Shown here piece after piece: positions 16,581 to 33,679 of a DNA stretch of 33,679 nucleotides (the stretch's first letter is position 1; the number at the start of each line of letters is the position of its first letter). Source of the stretch: a virus. Lineage: Duplodnaviria > Caudoviricetes. The position numbers were made by a program, and so were the translations under genes. A model generated the notes under the pieces. That model was not told where the DNA came from, did not search any database, and saw only the letters and a program-made list of their open reading frames with translations. Location: the IMG/VR virus record IMGVR_UViG_3300032288_001772, positions 1-33,679 of that record. One strand, 5' to 3'.

Positions 16581-17056
16581 TCGGCCTTGCTTGCCAGCTT
16601 GGCCAGCCACGCCTTGGCTTCCGAAATCTGACCAAGCAGGTCGGCAAGTTCCGTTTCCAGTTCCTGCTTCTGAATCTTGAGGTCCTCGGAGACCACGCCG
16701 ATGGACTCCTGCATCTTCTGGGCCTCGTTAACCTCCTCAAGCGCCGCCTGAATATCTGCGGTTGCCTGCTTCTTGGCCTCGTCGATGATGCGCGCGGCCT
16801 GTTCCTCGGCGTGCGCAACAACGTTCTCGGCCTCCTCCGTGGCTACCTCAGCCATCTTGAGAGCGCGCTCCTTGGCCTCTTCGGTCTGCTTCTTGGCCTC
16901 CTCAAGCTCGGCCTTGGCCTTTGCGACCTTGGCTTCAAGCTCGGCCTTGTGCTGGTCAATCTGACCAATCGCCTCAAGAGCATCAGCCGCTTCCTTGAGG
17001 GACTCGAACTGACGGGACAGGGTGCGGATCTGCAACGCGGTTTCGATGTAGCTCAT
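16577..17056 (-). CDS. Coiled-coil protein
   Basis: Ala/Glu/Lys heptad pattern throughout 159 aa. Confidence 0.75.
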   Translation of the reverse strand: MSYIETALQIRTLSRQFESLKEAADALEAIGQIDQHKAELEAKVAKAKAELEEAKKQTEEAKERALKMAEVATEEAENVVAHAEEQAARIIDEAKKQATADIQAALEEVNEAQKMQESIGVVSEDLKIQKQELETELADLLGQISEAKAWLAKLASKAE

Positions 17057-23293: not shown

Positions 23294-23321
23294 TTGGCTC
23301 ACTGCCGATGGTGTGTATAAT
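23294..23321 (+). promoter_or_regulatory. Sigma70-type early promoter
   Basis: TTGGCT (23294-23299), 16 nt, perfect TATAAT (23316-23321); at the head of the plus-strand cluster. Confidence 0.7.
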
Positions 23322-23333
23322 AGGGGCATCGAG

Positions 23334-23368
23334 CGCGGAACGCCGCGAACGACACCGATCTTTGACAG
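23334..23368 (+). promoter_or_regulatory. Hairpin plus boxA-like antitermination element
   Basis: CGCGG-AACG-CCGCG hairpin, then GATCTTTGACAG, which resembles rrn boxA (GCTCTTTAACA), ~30 nt after the predicted start site. Confidence 0.45.
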
Positions 23369-23511
23369 TGCGAACGACCTGAACCTGCCTGCCGGACCGC
23401 AGGGCGCAATCGACAGTAGCGCCCGACCGACCAACCCGACAGTCAGGCCAACGACCCGAAGCAAAGGGCGCAGGTAGTGGGGAACGGACGCGAGTCCGCA
23501 AACTCCCGAAT

Positions 23512-23568
23512 GTGGTCTGGTGCGTAGAGCGCACCACTGACGATGGCCTCGGACAAGGCCGAAACCAC
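23512..23568 (+). ncRNA. Hammerhead ribozyme, type III (HH1)
   Basis: Stem III GUGG/CCAC; GUC site (cut after 23517); stem I UGGUGCG/CGCACCA; core CUGACGA plus one extra U; stem II GGCC/GGCC; GAAA. Confidence 0.88.
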
Positions 23569-23583
23569 TACCCGATGATAACC

Positions 23584-23841
23584 ATGAACCTTCCAGTGTT
23601 TACCCCTGAGCCGCTCACCTTCACCAGCGCCGTGCTTAACGGTCGCGACCCTAGCCGCCGCGCTTACCGCTGCGAGCACAAGAGCAGGAAGTTCACCATC
23701 AACATCGACGGCAACGTCATCACCATCCGCGAGTATGTCGAGTGGGATGGCGCGTTTATCCGCTCCACGGTGACTAAGGCCAAAGCCGACCGAATCACCA
23801 AGGCCCAGCAACTTGTCGAACGCATTACCAACAAACTCTGA
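23584..23841 (+). CDS. Hypothetical early protein
   Basis: ATG 23584 (or 23575) lies just after HH1; the upstream GTG extension overlaps the ribozyme. Confidence 0.65.
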   Translation: MNLPVFTPEPLTFTSAVLNGRDPSRRAYRCEHKSRKFTINIDGNVITIREYVEWDGAFIRSTVTKAKADRITKAQQLVERITNKL

Positions 23842-23861
23842 TCCATAACGAAAGCAACAAC

Positions 23862-24134
23862 ATGCACTACTACTCCATCACGACCGTCACCTCCCACCGC
23901 CTCTTCAGTGTCCTGCTCGCCGCGTACAGCGGCACCAACATCAAGCCCGAGCGTTGGCAAGTCGCGGAAATGGCTCGCGATCTAGCCTGCGCCTTGAACG
24001 ATAACCTTGAGTGCAAGCTTGGCAGCCGCAACTACATCTCAGGCAACGATATCGAAGACGCCATCGACGTTTTCCTCCAGCAGCAGCAACTCAACGAGAC
24101 CGTCAAGCAGATCCTTGATAACCAGAAGAAGTAA
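23862..24134 (+). CDS. Hypothetical early protein
   Basis: 90-aa ORF with an A/C-rich leader; tight packing. Confidence 0.7.
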   Translation: MHYYSITTVTSHRLFSVLLAAYSGTNIKPERWQVAEMARDLACALNDNLECKLGSRNYISGNDIEDAIDVFLQQQQLNETVKQILDNQKK

Positions 24135-24136
24135 CC

Positions 24137-24277
24137 ATGAGCCAGCAAACCATCACCGTCGCGTCGATTGACGTATTCGCAGCCCTTATCGCCAAGTTCG
24201 TACAGGAGGGCCTCACCTTCGAGGCCAGCGACGATAAGGACGGCGGCTTTGTTATCCAACTTACCGGAGGGTTCTAA
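24137..24277 (+). CDS. Hypothetical early protein (46 aa)
   Basis: MSQQTITVASIDVFAALIAKFVQEGLTFEA...LTGGF fills the gap between neighbours. Confidence 0.65.
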   Translation: MSQQTITVASIDVFAALIAKFVQEGLTFEASDDKDGGFVIQLTGGF

Positions 24278-24278
24278 A

Positions 24279-24428
24279 ATGACCGACGATAACCAAATCA
24301 CCATTCCCGATATCTACTGCCCAGCATGCGGCCACTACGACCATGCCAAGTACGGCAACATCGGCAAGCTGCTGTTCTTGCAGTGCGGCCAGTGCGGAAC
24401 CGATTTCGTGGCCAAAGACAAAACGTAG
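24279..24428 (+). CDS. Small zinc-ribbon protein (49 aa)
   Basis: CPACG...CGQCG; GGAGG upstream of ATG 24279. Confidence 0.7.
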   Translation: MTDDNQITIPDIYCPACGHYDHAKYGNIGKLLFLQCGQCGTDFVAKDKT

Positions 24429-24459
24429 AAAACCAAAACTAACTACCCCCTAAATTTCC

Positions 24460-24747
24460 ATGACCGCAACGAAGAAAACCAAAGCGTGCTTCCTCTCTCA
24501 GTTCCATGGCCGCGAAGGCGGCACCTACGTCGTGATCACGGCGTGTGGTCGCTGGGGACGCGGACCGACAATCCTTGAAGCCAAGCGCAACTGCCAGCAG
24601 CAGGGCGCTCGCAAGTTTGCGCCAGACTGCGTGCTGGTTGCATGGCAGGCGCTCGATGAGCGTGGCCTGCCCGGCGTCGATGGCGACGGCTGCCTGAGTT
24701 ACTACGGCAAGCTGGACTACCTCTGGAGGCCCAGCGACGCACGATAA
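24460..24747 (+). CDS. Hypothetical early protein
   Basis: 95-aa ORF containing WGRGPTILEAKRN. Confidence 0.7.
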   Translation: MTATKKTKACFLSQFHGREGGTYVVITACGRWGRGPTILEAKRNCQQQGARKFAPDCVLVAWQALDERGLPGVDGDGCLSYYGKLDYLWRPSDAR

Positions 24748-24751
24748 CGCC

Positions 24752-24767
24752 GCGCCCTTTGGGGCGC
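24752..24767 (+). repeat. GC hairpin copy 1 (GCGCCC-TTTG-GGGCGC)
   Basis: 4 nt after a stop codon; 15/16 identical to the copy at 25037. Confidence 0.75.
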
Positions 24768-24783
24768 AGAAAGAAAAACAACG

Positions 24784-25032
24784 ATGACAACCGAACTGAC
24801 ACACGCCTCTCTAGCCTTGTTCCTGACTCTGGCCCGCGACTCGATGGATTGGAATGGAGTCCCGCTGTTCGAAGGCAGCAAAAGGCAGTGCGGCAACCTT
24901 AGCGACCTTAAAACGAAGGGCCTACTGTCCACGCAGCAGGACGAGGAGAACCGCCTTTGCCACTGGGTAATGTTCAGCGAGTCTGGCAGGCAGCTTGCCG
25001 CCCAGCACGGCATCAACATTCCCGACAACTAA
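24784..25032 (+). CDS. Hypothetical early protein, possible winged helix
   Basis: LSDLKTKGLL...WVMFSESGRQLA resembles a wHTH wing pattern. Confidence 0.7.
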   Translation: MTTELTHASLALFLTLARDSMDWNGVPLFEGSKRQCGNLSDLKTKGLLSTQQDEENRLCHWVMFSESGRQLAAQHGINIPDN

Positions 25033-25036
25033 CTCC

Positions 25037-25052
25037 GCGCCCTTCGGGGCGC
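25037..25052 (+). repeat. GC hairpin copy 2 (GCGCCC-TTCG-GGGCGC, cUUCGg tetraloop)
   Basis: 4 nt after a stop codon and abutting HH2. Confidence 0.8.
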
Positions 25053-25108
25053 TCGGTATGCGCAGTGGTGCTGCGCACTGATGAGGCCCAGCCAAGGCCG
25101 AAACCGAG
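25052..25108 (+). ncRNA. Hammerhead ribozyme, type III (HH2)
   Basis: Stem III CUCGG/CCGAG; GUA site (cut after 25058); stem I UGCGCAG/CUGCGCA; core CUGAUGA; stem II GGCC/GGCC; GAAA; fully intergenic. Confidence 0.93.
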
Positions 25109-25115
25109 AACTAGC

Positions 25116-25463
25116 ATGAACATCAACGACACGCTCAATCATCACAAATCGCGTTTGCTCAACATTCTGGGCGAGCAGCCCGGCGCGACGGTCTACACTC
25201 TGATCACCAAGCGCAGCGATACCTCGCGCCGCGTGCGTCTGTTTGCCTGCTGCGATAACAAGCTGCACGAAATCACCAGTTCGGCAGCGGTACTTATCTT
25301 CGGCGCAAAAGTCCAGCGCGGTGACTGGGGATCGCGTACCCGCCTCAACCCAGAGGGCCTTCGGTTCGAGGGCTGCGGTTACGACGTAGGCAACCATGCG
25401 ATTGGGTTTCTGGCCTTCCAGCTTCACGGCAGCGAGGACGCGCTGAAGGAGCAGTCCCTGTGA
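25116..25463 (+). CDS. Hypothetical early protein
   Basis: ATG 7 nt after HH2; contains PGATVYT...GCGYDVG. Confidence 0.7.
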   Translation: MNINDTLNHHKSRLLNILGEQPGATVYTLITKRSDTSRRVRLFACCDNKLHEITSSAAVLIFGAKVQRGDWGSRTRLNPEGLRFEGCGYDVGNHAIGFLAFQLHGSEDALKEQSL

Positions 25464-25747
25464 CCACTGATCCCATCTACGAGTTGCCGTTCTGGGATTA
25501 TCACCTCGACATGCGCATGGAGGAGTTTGTCCGGCGCATGGCCGACGATCAAGGCATGACGCACAAGTGGCGCGCCGAGACCGACATGGAGTGCGTGATA
25601 TTACTCAGCAACATGCGCAAGTCGCGCATCACCGATAGGCCGGAAACCTCGCATGAGGAACGGCTGATTGCCGCCAAGCTTATTGGCAAGGCGCTATCGC
25701 TTCGACTTCTGATTGGAACCTACAACGAACTCAAGGAACAACAATGA
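25460..25747 (+). CDS. Hypothetical early protein
   Basis: GTGA overlap and SD AAGGAG. Confidence 0.7.
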   Translation: MTTDPIYELPFWDYHLDMRMEEFVRRMADDQGMTHKWRAETDMECVILLSNMRKSRITDRPETSHEERLIAAKLIGKALSLRLLIGTYNELKEQQ

Positions 25748-26142
25748 CCGCTACCATCAAACCTTTCAATCACTGCGAAGGCGCTCGCGTGCGCGTCTAC
25801 CGCAACCTCCGCAACAACAAGCTGAGTGTGCAGGACAAGGTCACGCGCCGAGTCATCGGGCATGTCGATCACATTGATCTGGTGCAAGCGCGTTTCATCG
25901 TGTCGCGCACCGGAGTCGAGCGCATCCGCGCAACCAAGCGCAAGCGCGTCGTTGCATTCGTCGAAGGCACCATTCAACGCTTCGACGGCTCGCATGTTCT
26001 GCATAACCGCGTTCAGTTTAATCCGTACCGCTGGGACACGTTCGTCGATACGGATGGACACGGCGTTGAAGCGGCTGCGGAGATTGTCGTGAACAGCACC
26101 GGATGGATGTGGGCCAACGGCCTGCGCTGGTCGCACTGCTGA
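25744..26142 (+). CDS. Conserved-type phage hypothetical protein
   Basis: VRVYRNL...SV...VIGH...F.VS..G..R....KRK.V.AFVEG...FNPY pattern recognisable from phage hypotheticals; ATGA overlap. Confidence 0.8.
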   Translation: MTATIKPFNHCEGARVRVYRNLRNNKLSVQDKVTRRVIGHVDHIDLVQARFIVSRTGVERIRATKRKRVVAFVEGTIQRFDGSHVLHNRVQFNPYRWDTFVDTDGHGVEAAAEIVVNSTGWMWANGLRWSHC

Positions 26143-26151
26143 CCCTAACCC

Positions 26152-26373
26152 ATGAATACCATGAACGAAATCAAACTCTACGCTCAGTGGAGCGTCATCA
26201 ATAACGCCTACATGATTCTGTTCGGCAGTGCGCCGTGCGGACTTGGATCGACCGAACGAATCTTCTGGCCCAACCTAGCGGAGTTGGCGGTCGAGTGTGC
26301 CGCGCTTGGTCTCAGGATGCGCCCGAGTGGGCGCGGGATCACGCGGCGTTGGTATCTTGAAGTTAACGAGTAA
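26152..26373 (+). CDS. Hypothetical early protein
   Basis: 73-aa ORF that fills the gap. Confidence 0.6.
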   Translation: MNTMNEIKLYAQWSVINNAYMILFGSAPCGLGSTERIFWPNLAELAVECAALGLRMRPSGRGITRRWYLEVNE

Positions 26374-26389
26374 ACATTAGGAGAAAAGC

Positions 26390-27232
26390 ATGACTACTAC
26401 CCCGATTCATCCGTTCCAGAAAGCTGGCCTTGGCATCGCACCGTTCCGGGTCCTCGCATACGAGTGCCGTCGCGGCCCGATCAAGCGCGTCGAGAACGGC
26501 GTGCTCGTCACGTACGGCAGTCCCGGCCAGCCAGTTACCGCGTGCGAGTACTGCTCGACGCCGATTGTGCACGTGTACATCATCGAGAGCAGTGACGGCA
26601 GGGAGTTCGTTGTTGGCTGCGAGTGCGTGCGCAAGACTGGCGACGCGCACCTCCTCAAGCAAAGCAAGCAGCACCTTGGCGAGTTCCGAGCCAAGCAGCG
26701 CGAGGCCCAGCGCGTAGAGCGCAAGCAAGTGTGGGAGAATCAGCGGCGCGTCGAGGTGGACGCGCAGAAGCGCGAGTGGCTCGCCGCCAACCCATGGTGG
26801 AGCCCGTTTGCCGCGAAGCATGGACAGAATCAGTTCGTGCAGTCGCTGGCCAATACGCTGCACCTCTGGGGCACGCTCAGCGAAAAGCAGGTGCAGTTTG
26901 CCCAGCGCCTGCTTGTTCAGCTTGACGTTCCAAAAGTCCCGGTGCCCATCACCGAAGGTCGCACGCGCGTCACTGGCACCATCGTCAGCATGCGCACCGA
27001 CCGGAACGGCTACGGCAGAGTCGAGACCAAGGTTCTGCTCGACGTTACGACCGACGCAGGCGCGTACCGATTGTGGGGCACGCTGCCGGACGGCGCGTAC
27101 AGGGCGGTGCGTGGCGACACGCTGGCCTTCGACGCAATCGTGCAGCGCAGCGACAGGGACGTTGCGTTTGGGTTCTACAAGCGCCCGACCAAGGTCGTGC
27201 TGACTCCGGCAGAAGCGGGGGTGGAGGCATGA
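26390..27232 (+). CDS. Zn-binding N-terminal domain, helical linker and probable C-terminal OB-fold protein
   Basis: CEYC...VGCECV, LSEKQ and EGRTRVTGTIVS...GFYKRPTK motifs; SD AGGAG. Confidence 0.75.
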   Translation: MTTTPIHPFQKAGLGIAPFRVLAYECRRGPIKRVENGVLVTYGSPGQPVTACEYCSTPIVHVYIIESSDGREFVVGCECVRKTGDAHLLKQSKQHLGEFRAKQREAQRVERKQVWENQRRVEVDAQKREWLAANPWWSPFAAKHGQNQFVQSLANTLHLWGTLSEKQVQFAQRLLVQLDVPKVPVPITEGRTRVTGTIVSMRTDRNGYGRVETKVLLDVTTDAGAYRLWGTLPDGAYRAVRGDTLAFDAIVQRSDRDVAFGFYKRPTKVVLTPAEAGVEA

Positions 27233-27471
27233 CCTCCGCCCAACTCGACAGTGACCGCCCGTACTGGGCAATCCACAAGGAGACGGCGCACAAGTTCGAC
27301 TGCTTCGAGGACTTGTGCAGGTTTATCTCAAGCCTGAGTCCGATAGTGCCGATAACCCTGCCGCTCTACTTCGGATACTTGCCGCCTCCAACTTGCGGAG
27401 CGGACGGTTCCATAACTTTCGATCCAGCAAGATTAACTTGGGTACTTAAGATTAACACGGGAGATAAATAA
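27229..27471 (+). CDS. Hypothetical protein
   Basis: ATGA overlap at 27229 with GGAGG upstream. Confidence 0.55.
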   Translation: MTSAQLDSDRPYWAIHKETAHKFDCFEDLCRFISSLSPIVPITLPLYFGYLPPPTCGADGSITFDPARLTWVLKINTGDK

Positions 27472-27473
27472 TC

Positions 27474-27716
27474 ATGGACAACTCGATAATTAGCCCGACT
27501 TGGATTGTGCGCGGTAATACCCGCAAAACAATCGAAGTCGGCGAACTACGCAACGAAACGGAAGGGGGGCGCTGGGTGTTCTGGTACTACTCCTGCCGCG
27601 CCGAAGTGTTCAAGGGCTGCACTACGGCTAGCTTTCACTGGACCTACGAACAAGCCGAAGCCGAAGCGGAACGCCGCTGGCAGGCACGATTGGAGGGCGC
27701 ATGTTCCAATATCTGA
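27474..27716 (+). CDS. Hypothetical protein
   Basis: 80-aa ORF with SD GGAG. Confidence 0.6.
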   Translation: MDNSIISPTWIVRGNTRKTIEVGELRNETEGGRWVFWYYSCRAEVFKGCTTASFHWTYEQAEAEAERRWQARLEGACSNI

Positions 27717-28147
27717 TCGCCGCCATCCTGTCCGCTTTGACTCTGGCCTACCTCGCCACCGCGCAGCGCCCCACCATCGAGCAAATCGATGCGTACCGCA
27801 AGGAACTGCGCCCGTTGCTCGACGCGATTCGACAGGTCGAGTCGGGCGGCAACGACGAGGCCACTGGAGACGGCGGCAACGCCATCGGCGCATACCAAAT
27901 CTGGATCGCCTACTGGTCCGACGCCGTCGAGTGGGTGCCGGACCTCAAGGGCGAGTACGAAGGTTGTCGTGCGCGCTGGTACGCCGAGCGCATAATGATC
28001 GCATACTGGCACCGTTATGCACGCCGGGCGCTCATCGATGGCGACTATGAAAAGCTGGCCCGGGTCCACAACGGCGGCCCCAAGGGCCACCTCAAGCAGG
28101 CAACCGAGAAGTACTGGGACAAGGTAGTCAGGCTGCTTGAGGACTGA
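27701..28147 (+). CDS. Lysozyme-fold enzyme (i-type/destabilase-like) with N-terminal signal or anchor
   Basis: AIRQVESGG (catalytic Glu), GAYQI...YW.D and ARVHNGGP.G motifs; hydrophobic first ~20 aa; SD GGAGG. Confidence 0.8.
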   Translation: MFQYLIAAILSALTLAYLATAQRPTIEQIDAYRKELRPLLDAIRQVESGGNDEATGDGGNAIGAYQIWIAYWSDAVEWVPDLKGEYEGCRARWYAERIMIAYWHRYARRALIDGDYEKLARVHNGGPKGHLKQATEKYWDKVVRLLED

Positions 28148-28332: not shown

Positions 28333-28652
28333 CGTTCCCTCTCCACCAAATCGCGCACTTGCTTGCGCATGATGTTCCATGCGTTGCACCAGCCGCAGAC
28401 CTCGCCGGAACTGTCCCAAATGCCCGGCTTCATGTGGCGATGGGAGGGAGCGTTGCCTTCAGGGCGTCCATCAAAGTACCTATCGCTGACGCCGCAGCGC
28501 AAAACTTCCTCGGCGGCATCAAGCAGGTTCTGCATCCGGTCAAAGTGCATCAGCACCCGGTGACTAAGCTGCCGCAGTCCGGCCCAGCTAATATTCTTAT
28601 CCGTCTCTCCGCGAAAGTCCTTCAGGATTTCTTCAAGCTGCTCTTTCTTCAC
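28329..28652 (-). CDS. Hypothetical protein with H-x-H and CxxC
   Basis: GTG start overlaps the initiator stop; contains HRHMKPGIWD...CGWC. Confidence 0.6.
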   Translation of the reverse strand: MKKEQLEEILKDFRGETDKNISWAGLRQLSHRVLMHFDRMQNLLDAAEEVLRCGVSDRYFDGRPEGNAPSHRHMKPGIWDSSGEVCGWCNAWNIMRKQVRDLVERER

Positions 28653-29416
28653 GACGATCCCCCTCTTTTCGTTCGGTACGCCACGCACTCGGTGCAGGCA
28701 CACGCCAAGCTTCCCAAGGGCATGTTGGGCATGTGGGTGACAGGCTTCTGGTAGACGGAGGTCTTCTTGGCCACCCACTCAGCCTTGAATCCCACCCAGC
28801 CGCGTAGGACACACTCCGACACGGCATCTTTCAGTTCCCAGCCAGCCTTCTGGGCCTCCCCCTCGATCAGGCGCAATGCGCCGGAGGTCAGGGGTGCCCG
28901 CTTGGCGCGGCGCAACTGCACGAAGTTAATCCAGAGGGCCTCGGGCACCGAGTCGGGGCGTTGCGCCTCCGACAGGGAGCGGGCGGTGTATTCTCTCTTC
29001 TCTGGTTTTGGTTTTGGTTTTGGTTGGTTGGACGTTTGTTCAACGTCCGTTGAACGTTCGTTGGACGGCTGTTGAACGTCCGTTGGCGGAACGCTCTGGC
29101 GACGCGCTGCGGAGGCTAGGCCAGCCTTGGCTGCCTTGGCGGACTTGTCCCGGTACTGCTGGAGGGTGTCCTCGACGCGCTTGTTGGTCCAGCCACGACC
29201 CTCGACGAGCACAAAGAACTCGCCCAGAACGGCCTTCACCTCGGCCTCGTTCGACGGCAGCCCAACCTGTCGTGCAACGACCGTTGGACATTCGTTCAAC
29301 GGACGTTCCTGTAAGTAGTACCAGTCTAGCATCCTGCGGTAAGCCAAATCCTCCAGCGGCGTTAAGTGACGGGTGTGCGCGGCGTAGTCGCCAACGTGGA
29401 ATGGGTAGTATTTCAC
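28649..29416 (-). CDS. Replication initiator, YdaU/DUF1376 family
   Basis: YYPFHVGDY...T.HL..LE..AYRR.LD.YY N-terminus, an iteron-bearing linker and a C-terminal RGW.GFKA.W domain. Confidence 0.85.
   Translation of the reverse strand: MKYYPFHVGDYAAHTRHLTPLEDLAYRRMLDWYYLQERPLNECPTVVARQVGLPSNEAEVKAVLGEFFVLVEGRGWTNKRVEDTLQQYRDKSAKAAKAGLASAARRQSVPPTDVQQPSNERSTDVEQTSNQPKPKPKPEKREYTARSLSEAQRPDSVPEALWINFVQLRRAKRAPLTSGALRLIEGEAQKAGWELKDAVSECVLRGWVGFKAEWVAKKTSVYQKPVTHMPNMPLGSLACACTECVAYRTKRGGSS
29028..29093. repeat. Six tandem 11-bp iteron-like repeats (TTG[A/G]ACGNNNG), putative origin A
   Basis: TTGGACGTTTG TTCAACGTCCG TTGAACGTTCG TTGGACGGCTG TTGAACGTCCG TTGGCGGAACG, next to a (TGGTTT)n tract. Confidence 0.8.
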
Positions 29417-29426
29417 GGTGGCTGCC

Positions 29427-29627
29427 TCAGGCGCTACGGCCACCCTTCATCAGGTCCCGCAGCAACTGCCGACGTTTCCGAACGCCTTCCGCCGTGCGAG
29501 CATTTGAGCAAGAGACGCACGTGCAGTTGATGATCCAACGTAAGGTGCCGCCACAAACCTTGCAGGGCTTCCCTTCGTACTTGGTCTGGCCTTCCATCGC
29601 GGCCTTGGTTCTGGGTGATTCGTTCAT
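29427..29627 (-). CDS. Small Cys-rich (zinc-finger) protein, copy A
   Basis: YEGKPCKVCGGTLRW..NCTCVSC. Confidence 0.75.
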   Translation of the reverse strand: MNESPRTKAAMEGQTKYEGKPCKVCGGTLRWIINCTCVSCSNARTAEGVRKRRQLLRDLMKGGRSA

Positions 29628-30893: not shown

Positions 30894-31739
30894 TTAGTCA
30901 GTGCAGTTGCAGGGAAGGCCGTCTTCTTGGACAGGGTCATCAAACAGCCATCCCTGTCGCTTCACCAGCAAAGCCAACGCCTCGTACTTGGGACGATCAA
31001 GCCTAAACACCTTTCCGTTTCCGGTTGCAGCAATATCCGTCCTAGACTCTTGCTTGATCCACCACTCAGCCGAATCTGGCTCTGCTTTCATAATCTTCAG
31101 CAGGCGTTCCTTGGTTTTGAGAAAGCACAAGGAGCAGTTGCCAAAGCTGTTGTCGCCGCCTGGTAGCTGAAGATCAAAATTGTTGTTCTTCCAGAACTCA
31201 AGGACGTGGGTCACGTCGTGGCCCGCTGCGTACATGGGGCACTCGATTTCCTCGGCGGCTGTGTCGCCCTTGATCTTGGCAACCCGCCTAGGTTCGTCAG
31301 CTCGCAGGCCGATGGAACAAGTCCAGGAGTCCCAGCCCAAACTACGGCAAAACCGTTTGCCAGTTCTGATCTTCAGCTCTGAGGTGCAGAACCTTTGCTG
31401 CGGGTTAGGCAAGGAGCCCTTGGCTTTGATCAGGTCGGCAAACGGTTCCCCGTTTCGAGAGGCCGTCTCGTAGTTGACCACTTTAAAGCTGTGTTCGTCG
31501 TTGACCCGCTGGTATTCTAGCCAAACGAGCGGCCTCCAGTTGGTTTCGATGTCTCTCAGAAAATCGTAGGTCTTGGGGTGCTCAAGGCCGGTGTTGCAGA
31601 AGACTGGGATCACGTCATCCGGCAACTTGCCGTCGTAAGCCTCAAGGACCTTGTGAAGCATGAACCCGCTGGTTCTGCCCCCTGACACGTTGATGAGTGC
31701 AGGGCCTTCAATCCGGTATGGGTTCCTTGTGGCGTTCAT
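30894..31739 (-). CDS. Phosphoadenosine phosphosulfate reductase-family (PP-loop) protein
   Basis: PP-loop SGGRTS, FCNTG.EH..T, RFCT.ELK, IGLRADE..R, NC..CFLK and C-terminal C.C.D motifs. ATG 31739 overlaps the upstream stop. Confidence 0.85.
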   Translation of the reverse strand: MNATRNPYRIEGPALINVSGGRTSGFMLHKVLEAYDGKLPDDVIPVFCNTGLEHPKTYDFLRDIETNWRPLVWLEYQRVNDEHSFKVVNYETASRNGEPFADLIKAKGSLPNPQQRFCTSELKIRTGKRFCRSLGWDSWTCSIGLRADEPRRVAKIKGDTAAEEIECPMYAAGHDVTHVLEFWKNNNFDLQLPGGDNSFGNCSLCFLKTKERLLKIMKAEPDSAEWWIKQESRTDIAATGNGKVFRLDRPKYEALALLVKRQGWLFDDPVQEDGLPCNCTD

Positions 31740-32458
31740 GCGGTCACCGTCCTCTTCGCCCGGTACTGGACACAGCCCTGGCAGTTGCAGGCTGCGGTCC
31801 CCAAGGGCATGTTCGGCATGTGCTGGACATCCTTGGACAGCGGCTTGCCGTTGATGGTCTTGGTCACCCAGTCGGCCTTGAAGCCCTGCCAGCCCCTGAC
31901 CACGCATTCCTTGATGGCAGCCTCCAAGGTCCACCCAGCCTTCTCCGCCTCGGCCTTGATGCCGTCCAAGGCCACCTCGGTCATGGGGGCCTTCTTGGCC
32001 TTGCGCACGGCTAGGTAGTCCTTCCAAAGGTTCTCAGGAACGTCCGAAGGACAAGGAAGAGAATACAGCGACCGCGTAGCGGGAGCCTCTTCTCTTCTCT
32101 CCTCTTCTCTTCTCTTCTCTAGGCTAGCAGGTTGATAGCACTCTGCTAGCAGGTTGCTAGCAGGTTGCTCCGGTTCTGCTAGCACGTTGCTAGCACTCTG
32201 CTCCAGCCATGGAGAGAGTCTTGTAAGTAGCTTGCTGGTATCGGCTTCCTTCATTCTCAGCCTGAAGGCCAGTTGCTTGAGGTGTGGCAGTTGCCCTTTG
32301 TCCTCAGCGGCGATGAGCCAGAGCATGATGAGTGCCTTGGCATCGTCCCCCGACAGGTTGTGCCACTCCACGTCGTCCAGGATGGACTTGTAGAGCTTGA
32401 TCCAGTGGGGGCTACGGTCCTTGTAGTGCTGGAACTTCTCCCAGTTCTTGATCTTCAC
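31736..32458 (-). CDS. Second replication initiator (replisome-organiser-type N-terminus)
   Basis: IKNWEKFQHYKDR.P.WIKLY..IL.D.EW..L N-terminus, an iteron linker and a C-terminal domain paralogous to 28649-29416. Confidence 0.8.
   Translation of the reverse strand: MKIKNWEKFQHYKDRSPHWIKLYKSILDDVEWHNLSGDDAKALIMLWLIAAEDKGQLPHLKQLAFRLRMKEADTSKLLTRLSPWLEQSASNVLAEPEQPASNLLAECYQPASLEKRREEERREEAPATRSLYSLPCPSDVPENLWKDYLAVRKAKKAPMTEVALDGIKAEAEKAGWTLEAAIKECVVRGWQGFKADWVTKTINGKPLSKDVQHMPNMPLGTAACNCQGCVQYRAKRTVTA
32123..32207. repeat. Seven to eight tandem 11-bp iteron-like repeats (GCTAGCANNNT), putative origin B
   Basis: GCTAGCAGGTT GATAGCACTCT GCTAGCAGGTT GCTAGCAGGTT GCTCCGGTTCT GCTAGCACGTT GCTAGCACTCT, next to a (CTCTT)n tract at 32087-32120. 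Confidence 0.85.
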
Positions 32459-32694: not shown

Positions 32695-33620
32695 GCATCT
32701 GTCGCATCGAACACTGGCCTAGCCGTGTGAGGCACCACGACCTTGCGCTGCATGGGCCTCTCCCCCCTCGGCTCCGCATGCGTCAGCGGCCTGACCCCGT
32801 AGCTCATTCCACACACCTCCAACAAGATCTTTCTTGCGACAAACCTGGTACCTAAAGGCACAACAGATTGGGTCTCCAGATAGGCCACATACTTCACAAA
32901 TGTCCGGTAACCTCCAAGCATCCTACGGAGTCTGGTATCAATCTTGACCGGGTCCGCTCGCGGTGGCTCACACCAACGAGCTGCAAGCATCGCTCGCTCA
33001 AACATCCGCCTACGCCAAGCCTCACTCTTCTCCTCCAGGTACCGAGGCTCTAACCGATACCGCTCCAACAACCACAACGGCGGTAACCACCAACTGCCGT
33101 CCTGGTACCCCTCAAACATCGGGTACTCACTCACAGGATACGTGGCCGCAACCGACCGCGGAGACACCGACTTCCACTTCTCATACGCCGTTAACGGGTA
33201 CCGCGTACCAACCGCACGATACGCATCCGCGTGAGGCACCCCTGGCACCACATACACCGACTGAGGCACATACCGCAAAGGTGTGTCCAGAGCAAACGGC
33301 GGTAACGCTATACGGGACGTGGAGAGAGGGGGTGAACCTATACAGGACGTAGAGATGGAGAGAGGGGGGACCCTATCTATGTTTGTTGGGTCCCCCCCGC
33401 GCCGGGCTGGGTACGGGGATGGGTAGGTGGGCGTACCCCCACCCCCACCCGCCGCCACGCCGCGCCCCTCGCTAGGCTGCGCAGGATGGCAAGGGACGGG
33501 CGAACGGTGCGGTGCGTCTCCCTCACCGGGCGAGGGAAGGAAGGCGCTGCGGTGCGCTCCCTGGAAGGCGAGGGAAGGCGAGGATGCGAGGGAGGGAAGG
33601 CGAGACTGGCAACCCCCCAC
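32691..33620 (-). CDS. Possible hypothetical protein; start uncertain, probably well downstream of 33620
   Basis: Long open frame. The N-terminal third is translated repeat DNA; the part from about 33270 down looks more protein-like. Confidence 0.35.
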   Translation of the reverse strand: MGGCQSRLPSLASSPSLAFQGAHRSAFLPSPGEGDAPHRSPVPCHPAQPSEGRGVAAGGGGGTPTYPSPYPARRGGDPTNIDRVPPLSISTSCIGSPPLSTSRIALPPFALDTPLRYVPQSVYVVPGVPHADAYRAVGTRYPLTAYEKWKSVSPRSVAATYPVSEYPMFEGYQDGSWWLPPLWLLERYRLEPRYLEEKSEAWRRRMFERAMLAARWCEPPRADPVKIDTRLRRMLGGYRTFVKYVAYLETQSVVPLGTRFVARKILLEVCGMSYGVRPLTHAEPRGERPMQRKVVVPHTARPVFDATDA

Positions 33621-33679
33621 CGCAACCGCAATCGCCCGCCCAATAGCGGATCGCTGGCTCCGCGCACGGCCATGGGCAG

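Follow-up and report, generated by a model that had tools for sequence, protein, structure and literature searches.

Two type III hammerhead ribozymes in the rightward transcript of an uncultured freshwater phage, likely to divide it into a leader and two linear gene-block mRNAs

Gene layout and the two hammerhead motifs

The window (the whole 33,679-nt stretch of DNA that was analysed) is a tailed-phage contig from freshwater that represents an uncultured phage, and its sequence recurs unchanged within a 43,234-bp record rated complete (L128/G001). The DNA runs that contained most of the window are freshwater metagenomes. From ∼22.9 kb, the genes for terminase, head-tail adaptor, major head, tail and internal virion proteins are read leftward, as are the replication genes, which begin at the right end of the window. 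Between the structural and the replication genes lie 14 small + strand ORFs (23584-28147), and from this layout we infer that the + strand block is an early operon. A search for close strains with two ORFs gave nothing beyond the record of the window itself. Farther to the right, two replication-initiator/primosomal-like genes (28649-29443 and 31736-32458) flank a PAPS-reductase-like gene, and each of the two is preceded by a small gene matching PHROGs 15231, 1081 and 23777. The end of the window (33200-33679) is purine-rich, repetitive and strand-skewed. The features of the + strand block are as follows.

23294-23321, + strand: sigma70-like promoter at the strand switch (10/12), start predicted near 23328
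23328-23517, + strand: leader that HH1 would release, ∼190 nt, without an ATG-started ORF of at least 40 aa
23334-23347, + strand: 5' hairpin of the leader, predicted by folding, with a hairpin at the equivalent place in L131
23355-23367, + strand: boxA-like motif, 10/13 to the rrn boxA consensus of B. subtilis; the sole such match in the window
23473-23480, + strand: competitor segment of 8 nt, complementary to 23565-23572, a predicted rival of HH1 stem III
23479-23507, + strand: hairpin directly 5' of the HH1 cut, predicted by folding
23512-23568, + strand: HH1, type III hammerhead, GUC, predicted cut after 23517, extra U after A9
23584-25032, + strand: block 1, six small ORFs of 85, 90, 46, 49, 95 and 82 aa
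24752-24767, + strand: hairpin past the stop of ORF 24460, a near-copy of the hairpin before HH2
25037-25052, + strand: UUCG hairpin adjoining HH2 that would cap the 3' end of released block 1
25052-25108, + strand: HH2, type III hammerhead, GUA, predicted cut after 25058, next ATG 7 nt past its end
25116-28147, + strand: block 2, eight ORFs, the last a destabilase-type lysozyme, with HH2 in front

The preliminary description had reported two complete same-strand type III hammerheads at this locus, and the descriptor, folding and shuffling results confirmed both. When a type I/II/III descriptor was applied to both strands of the window, HH1 and HH2 alone were recovered, and the type III descriptor gave 0 matches in 500 dinucleotide shuffles. 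Each motif contains the type III core (C3-U4-G5-A6-N7-G8-A9, G12-A13-A14-A15 and U16-H17), with the one extra U of HH1; loops close stems I and II, stem III is open, and the core-adjacent positions are all paired. HH1 is made up of a stem III of 4 bp plus U16.1-A15.1, a stem I of 7-8 bp, the core CUGACGA, a stem II of 5 bp and GAAA, and the corresponding parts of HH2 are a stem III of 5 bp plus U-A, a stem I of 7-8 bp, the core CUGAUGA, a stem II of 4 bp and GAAA. Both isolated sequences folded into the hammerhead shape (HH1, z -3.2, 0/200 shuffles as good; HH2, z -2.5, 4/200). The predicted cuts delimit a segment of 1541 nt with six ATG ORFs inside, in agreement with the earlier description.

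The likeness to RF00008 extends to the core, the NUH triplet, the three stems and the open stem III. In the cmsearch that had been proposed as a check, no Rfam match was obtained in the window at the gathering threshold, and at an E-value threshold HH2 matched RF00008 with 41.1 bits (E 3.2e-6; gathering 48.5, a curator threshold of one model and not a structural criterion), whereas HH1 was unmatched, probably because of its extra U. That U is common to 15/31 aligned phage motifs. According to the accessible text of one study, an extra A at this position in CChMVd lowers the rate only moderately, and GUA before the cut occurs in natural active hammerheads (PMC1636495). A search model prepared from 31 type III motifs, HH1 and HH2 included, gave exactly two matches in the complete 43,234-bp record; no third or degenerate hammerhead was found in the window by this model, where the next best score was 9.5 bits. 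Trans-cleavage tags on the + strand comprised only the motifs' own sites plus one at 16881, antisense in the structural genes, and were rejected.

The leader, HH1 and their counterparts in related phages

The TATAAT promoter that had been noted upstream of the ribozymes exists, though the scan of the window found 4 such sites versus 2.8 expected. A search of 100 terminase-relative loci with the 31-motif model yielded one match, in L131 (TerL 71%), and a pattern scan of 76 TerS loci revealed 0 hammerheads; in both sets many loci are short or perhaps without the syntenic region. The retention of paired ribozymes by related phages, which the preliminary description had put forward for checking, is therefore not general. 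L131 keeps a promoter-like element (read by eye), the 5' hairpin, the identical 13-mer of the boxA-like motif and HH1, with a longer leader, a stem I that is changed but paired, and a first gene that differs from that of the window; its contig ends 337 nt after HH1. The order of promoter, 5' hairpin and boxA-like motif thus occurs in two phages (window, 23328-23367; L131, ∼630-585 on the - strand). In the closer relative L129 (TerL 75%) the same divergent operon is found, again with the lysozyme as its last gene; the leader there is short and a ribozyme is absent, so any benefit of the ribozymes is dispensable and they are accessory.

A 5' hairpin and boxA-like motif near the promoter correspond to the layout of an rRNA operon leader and, judged from sequence, may bring host antitermination factors to the early operon. 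The overall fold of the leader was no better than that of shuffles (z -0.26), and no Rfam family matched it. A scan for boxA plus GACCTG gave 73 loci; the matches listed were mostly coding sequence without hammerheads and included no further such leader. Hairpin-plus-boxA motifs were also observed upstream of hammerheads in L030, L031, L059 and L063.

Over 8 bp, the competitor segment of the leader is perfectly complementary to the 3' side of HH1 stem III (23473-23480 with 23565-23572). With this pairing the predicted probability of HH1 stem III in the leader context is near zero; the cost of the active fold is 1.7 kcal/mol as stem III begins to emerge and reaches 3.4-5.5 kcal/mol later, with tertiary contacts and kinetics unscored, and the family median is 2.9 kcal/mol. 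HH1 is thus predicted to be misfolded in its leader, and its cutting is perhaps slow or conditional. The corresponding cost for HH2 in its native context was 1.0-1.5 kcal/mol, a prediction that likewise leaves out tertiary contacts and kinetics, and its stem III probability varied from 0.08 to 0.75 with the folded context.

In the folding model, the 23473-23480 pairing is a possible off-state of HH1 that would also cover the first start region. It is conceivable on this basis that HH1 acts as a switch through release of its leader, with boxA loading an rRNA-type antitermination complex and the 8-bp pairing gating both cleavage and the first start codon. The 5' hairpin and boxA-like motif of the window and L131, arranged as in B. 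subtilis rrn leaders, are consistent with such a switch, as are the absence of both this leader and HH1 from L129 and a drop in the predicted cost of opening the first start region, which is 6.5 kcal/mol before the cut and 2.3 kcal/mol once it has been made. A similar drop, however, was seen in 1/9 control genes, and a competing helix was not evident in L131 in a 120-nt context (0.7 kcal/mol; the full leader gave 6.8 kcal/mol with another misfold). In addition, boxA-like motifs showed no clear enrichment ahead of first hammerheads (6 versus 3 of 53), and the leader pattern scan described above also speaks against the switch, which we consider improbable.

Gene blocks, strain variants and hammerheads of other phages

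The ATG starts of block 1 are at 23584, 23862, 24137, 24279, 24460 and 24784, and 6/6 of these ORFs are called genes in the protein collection. None of the six matched PHROG or the other fetched loci. ORF 24279 gave a sub-threshold zinc ribbon match, ORF 24784 resembled viral clusters without a name at 0.92-0.93 and also gave a weak HTH lead, and a function search with ORF 24460 returned nothing usable. The folding z in the 35 nt before the cut was -1.8 and -1.9 for the window's own two motifs. A GC-rich tetraloop hairpin is repeated directly after stop codons (24752-24767 and 25037-25052), the first copy being without a ribozyme behind it.

In an otherwise near-identical strain, X2, the gene behind HH2 (25116-25463) is a divergent allele with 83% aa identity; 32 of the 40 differences listed fall in this gene, from 25120 on, and neither ribozyme is altered by any of the 40. 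In the hairpin at 24752-24767 the same strain has the loop alone changed, into the UNCG type. A separate contig in runs X2 and X6 carries a version of HH2 with 3-4 changes and flanks that are unrelated; here too a hairpin comes before the motif and an ATG ∼25 nt after it. The flanked genes are therefore not constant, since both the first gene of L131 and the flanks of this HH2 look-alike differ from those of the window. Taken together, the L131/L129 pattern, the X2 allele and HH2 with other flanks indicate that the cassette is portable and accessory.

Hammerheads of other phages were collected with a core-plus-stem-II pattern, which gave 127 viral loci among the matches listed, 121 of them containing one or more complete motifs of type I or III. 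Motif numbers were surveyed in the first 80 of these loci with flanks of up to 4 kb, corresponding to 73 contigs besides that of the window, not dereplicated to species; one motif was present in 43 contigs, two in 12, three or more in 14, and none could be classified in 4. One contig (L043, L105, L106 and L107) contains 13 near-identical type I hammerheads in its first 7.7 kb, most of them ∼40-130 nt from the next ORF. An ATG-started ORF began no more than 40 nt downstream of 104/131 distinct motifs, compared to 15/130 on the opposite strand and 523/2000 (26%) random positions, and the bias was present for type III (24/30 versus 5/31 on the opposite strand) and type I (80/101 versus 10/99). 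A same-strand stop codon was located within 60 nt upstream of 98/128 motifs. From this proximity to start codons downstream and stops upstream, and from their numbers per contig, phage hammerheads behave as gene-front elements and not as pairs. Upstream hairpins (z ≤ -2 in the 35 nt before the motif) were detected for 13/31 type III motifs, 5/103 type I motifs and 11/100 random positions.

Release of the start codon by cleavage was considered as a general purpose and is unsupported, as a drop of at least 1 kcal/mol in the start-region opening cost was predicted for only 7/24 type III motifs and not for HH2. As separate observations, an ATG lies within the 3' strand of stem III in L029, L036, L053, L066 and L088, where cleavage might free the start codon, and opposite-strand pairs of hammerhead patterns, 100-280 nt apart and facing outward, occur in the metagenome loci L299, L306, L307, L323 and L345. 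A scan of metagenomes gave 105 loci.

Stems I and III of the collected motifs showed 101 double changes versus 35.5 in shuffles (0/500 as high), in a set with fixed stem II that had been filtered for pairing, which makes the test partly circular. The intact cores, the compensatory changes and the tight distance to start codons imply selection. The earlier argument that the differing yet paired stems of HH1 and HH2 reflect selection on structure applies to each ribozyme and does not extend to the two as a pair. The same three properties count against the proposal that the motifs are passengers on recombining gene cassettes, with little or no benefit to the phage. Such passengers would be expected to be patchy in relatives, as is the case here (1/100 loci), and a near-identical HH2 in a contig with unrelated flanks, together with an allele swap that starts directly behind HH2, fits the same proposal; we nevertheless consider it the least probable of the readings.

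Proposed fate of the transcript after cleavage

Cutting by a hammerhead produces a 5'-OH end and a 2',3'-cyclic phosphate end, and in a type III motif stems I and II stay with the downstream RNA. From the predicted cuts, the leaders left on the downstream RNAs are 66 nt (HH1) and 57 nt (HH2). The preliminary description had proposed a self-excising, circularisable mRNA, in which a host RtcB-type ligase would close 23518-25058 into a stable circular six-gene message; if true, a DNA phage makes a long-lived natural circular polycistronic mRNA by ribozyme excision. The end chemistry is right for ligases of this type, RtcB is encoded by 10/14 control genomes, and the ligated junction would be a poor ribozyme, with a hybrid stem III of only three pairs (2 bp plus U-A), as had been claimed. 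The weakness of this hybrid stem, which would stop re-cleavage, leaves no template for ligation either, so that ribozyme-templated ligation is unlikely.

Several other results stand against the circle. In the predicted fold of the 1541-nt piece each end closes in its own hairpin, and the two ends are unpaired. The hybrid stems of adjacent type III pairs (n = 5) amount to 1, 2, 1, 3 and 4 bp, without consistent cross-compatibility; many of 47 pairs in type I arrays do cross-match, a result that is uninformative because part of stem I was set by the pattern and the array copies are paralogous. Among the phage contigs, those with one motif or an array outnumber those with a pair, block 2 is fronted by a ribozyme with no closing one found, retrozyme-type terminal repeats are absent around HH1/HH2, and neither RtcB (PF01139) nor RNA ligase (PF09414) was matched in the complete phage record. 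For prophage clusters, circles and spliced products were sought and neither was detected, according to the accessible text of that report, which does not show the data (PMC3088659). The circular mRNA is thus unsupported, and we regard it as very improbable. At the DNA level, the joints listed for 8 runs included none that bypasses the segment (X9, X11 and X12 gave scattered pieces only), and the sole joint listed (X7) rests on 22-nt sides.

The other part of the earlier interpretation, protein-free processing of the polycistron, is supported and had been proposed before. In the accessible text of a 2011 study (Perreault 2011; PMC3088659), clustered hammerheads flank phage or prophage genes or gene blocks in C. 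scindens, A. caulinodans and A. tumefaciens; three tandem prophage clusters were cleaved in vitro, one of them in E. coli too, and processing to operon- or gene-length mRNAs was suggested. Like these clusters, the window has several hammerheads on the same strand, situated among variable small genes that share one phage transcript. The differences are that the phage here is a free, podovirus-like one, that its two motifs are both type III, that a boxA-like leader and 3' hairpins are present, and that activity is predicted. A single, variant, salt-adapted motif, HHphage, of the archaeal haloviruses HF1/HF2 likewise directly precedes the first ORF on a polycistronic early transcript, and the transcript 5' end in HF2 maps within 3 nt of the hammerhead cut, as reported in the same text (PMC3088659). 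With retrozymes and Avsunviroidae the window shares two same-strand hammerheads and, here by prediction, an RNA with 5'-OH and cyclic-phosphate ends; retrozyme hammerheads, as described in the accessible part of that source, are embedded in direct repeats of 300-400 bp on either side of a centre that is non-coding, and target-site duplications accompany them (PMC4918200). In contrast, the window pair has no common flanking repeat and encloses six ORFs, and its ligated junction would not restore the ribozyme.

Our preferred interpretation, to which we assign a probability of roughly 0.6, is that HH1 and HH2 cut the rightward transcript co-transcriptionally into the leader and two linear gene-block mRNAs, each predicted to have a hairpin-rich 5'-OH start and probably stabilised by it. 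The HH1 cut would remove the boxA-bearing non-coding leader, and the HH2 cut would split block 1 from block 2. Each cut would generate a new, hairpin-bearing 5'-OH end on the downstream mRNA, and the hairpin upstream of the cut would cap the released 3' end. Both a 5'-OH and a hairpin at the 5' end are obstacles to RNase E, so the new 5' end would probably be a poor entry point for 5'-monophosphate-dependent decay, and the upstream hairpin would be expected to slow 3' exonucleases. Each block could then be insulated, being translated and decaying independently of the upstream RNA. The portable cassette would comprise a 3' hairpin, a ribozyme and an A-rich start region, and it would work before a gene rather than as half of a pair. 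The enrichment of hairpins before type III cuts noted above (13/31 versus 11/100) favours linear products that are protected at both ends, which would amount to a natural insulator. This arrangement can be likened to the engineered RiboJ-type synthetic insulator, in which a defined cut provides a standard structured 5' end, and to T7 early mRNA, an early polycistron that is split by RNase III, a host enzyme that leaves a 5' phosphate.

In accessible sources, monophosphates made by RppH precede RNase E decay. A 5'-OH end is not always protective, to judge by analogy with the glmS product, which is rapidly degraded by RNase J1 according to the accessible text of PMC3328962. Cleavage might by the same token destabilise the early message, through RNase J entry at the 5'-OH or through phosphorylation followed by decay, and so keep the early genes transient; the block genes are small, variable and probably needed transiently, consistent with such timing. 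The hairpins that remain on both new ends are, however, a better fit to protection, and the repeated hairpin at 24752-24767 keeps its stem in the strain variant. We judge this timed decay to be unlikely, and stabilised linear mRNAs remain the preferred interpretation.

The ribozyme arrangement was already described in 2011, as far as the accessible text of that study goes (PMC3088659), and the enrichment of upstream hairpins and the boxA-like leader shared with L131 are small additions. The purpose of phage intergenic hammerheads was called undefined in the accessible part of a 2019 review (PMC6765202). A title search, with most subscription papers outside its reach, found neither a newer functional study nor natural phage circles. 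That purpose, open since at least 2011, is not answered by this locus. What the locus offers is a compact test case, in which one motif would trim a leader, one would split gene blocks, and a syntenic relative has neither.
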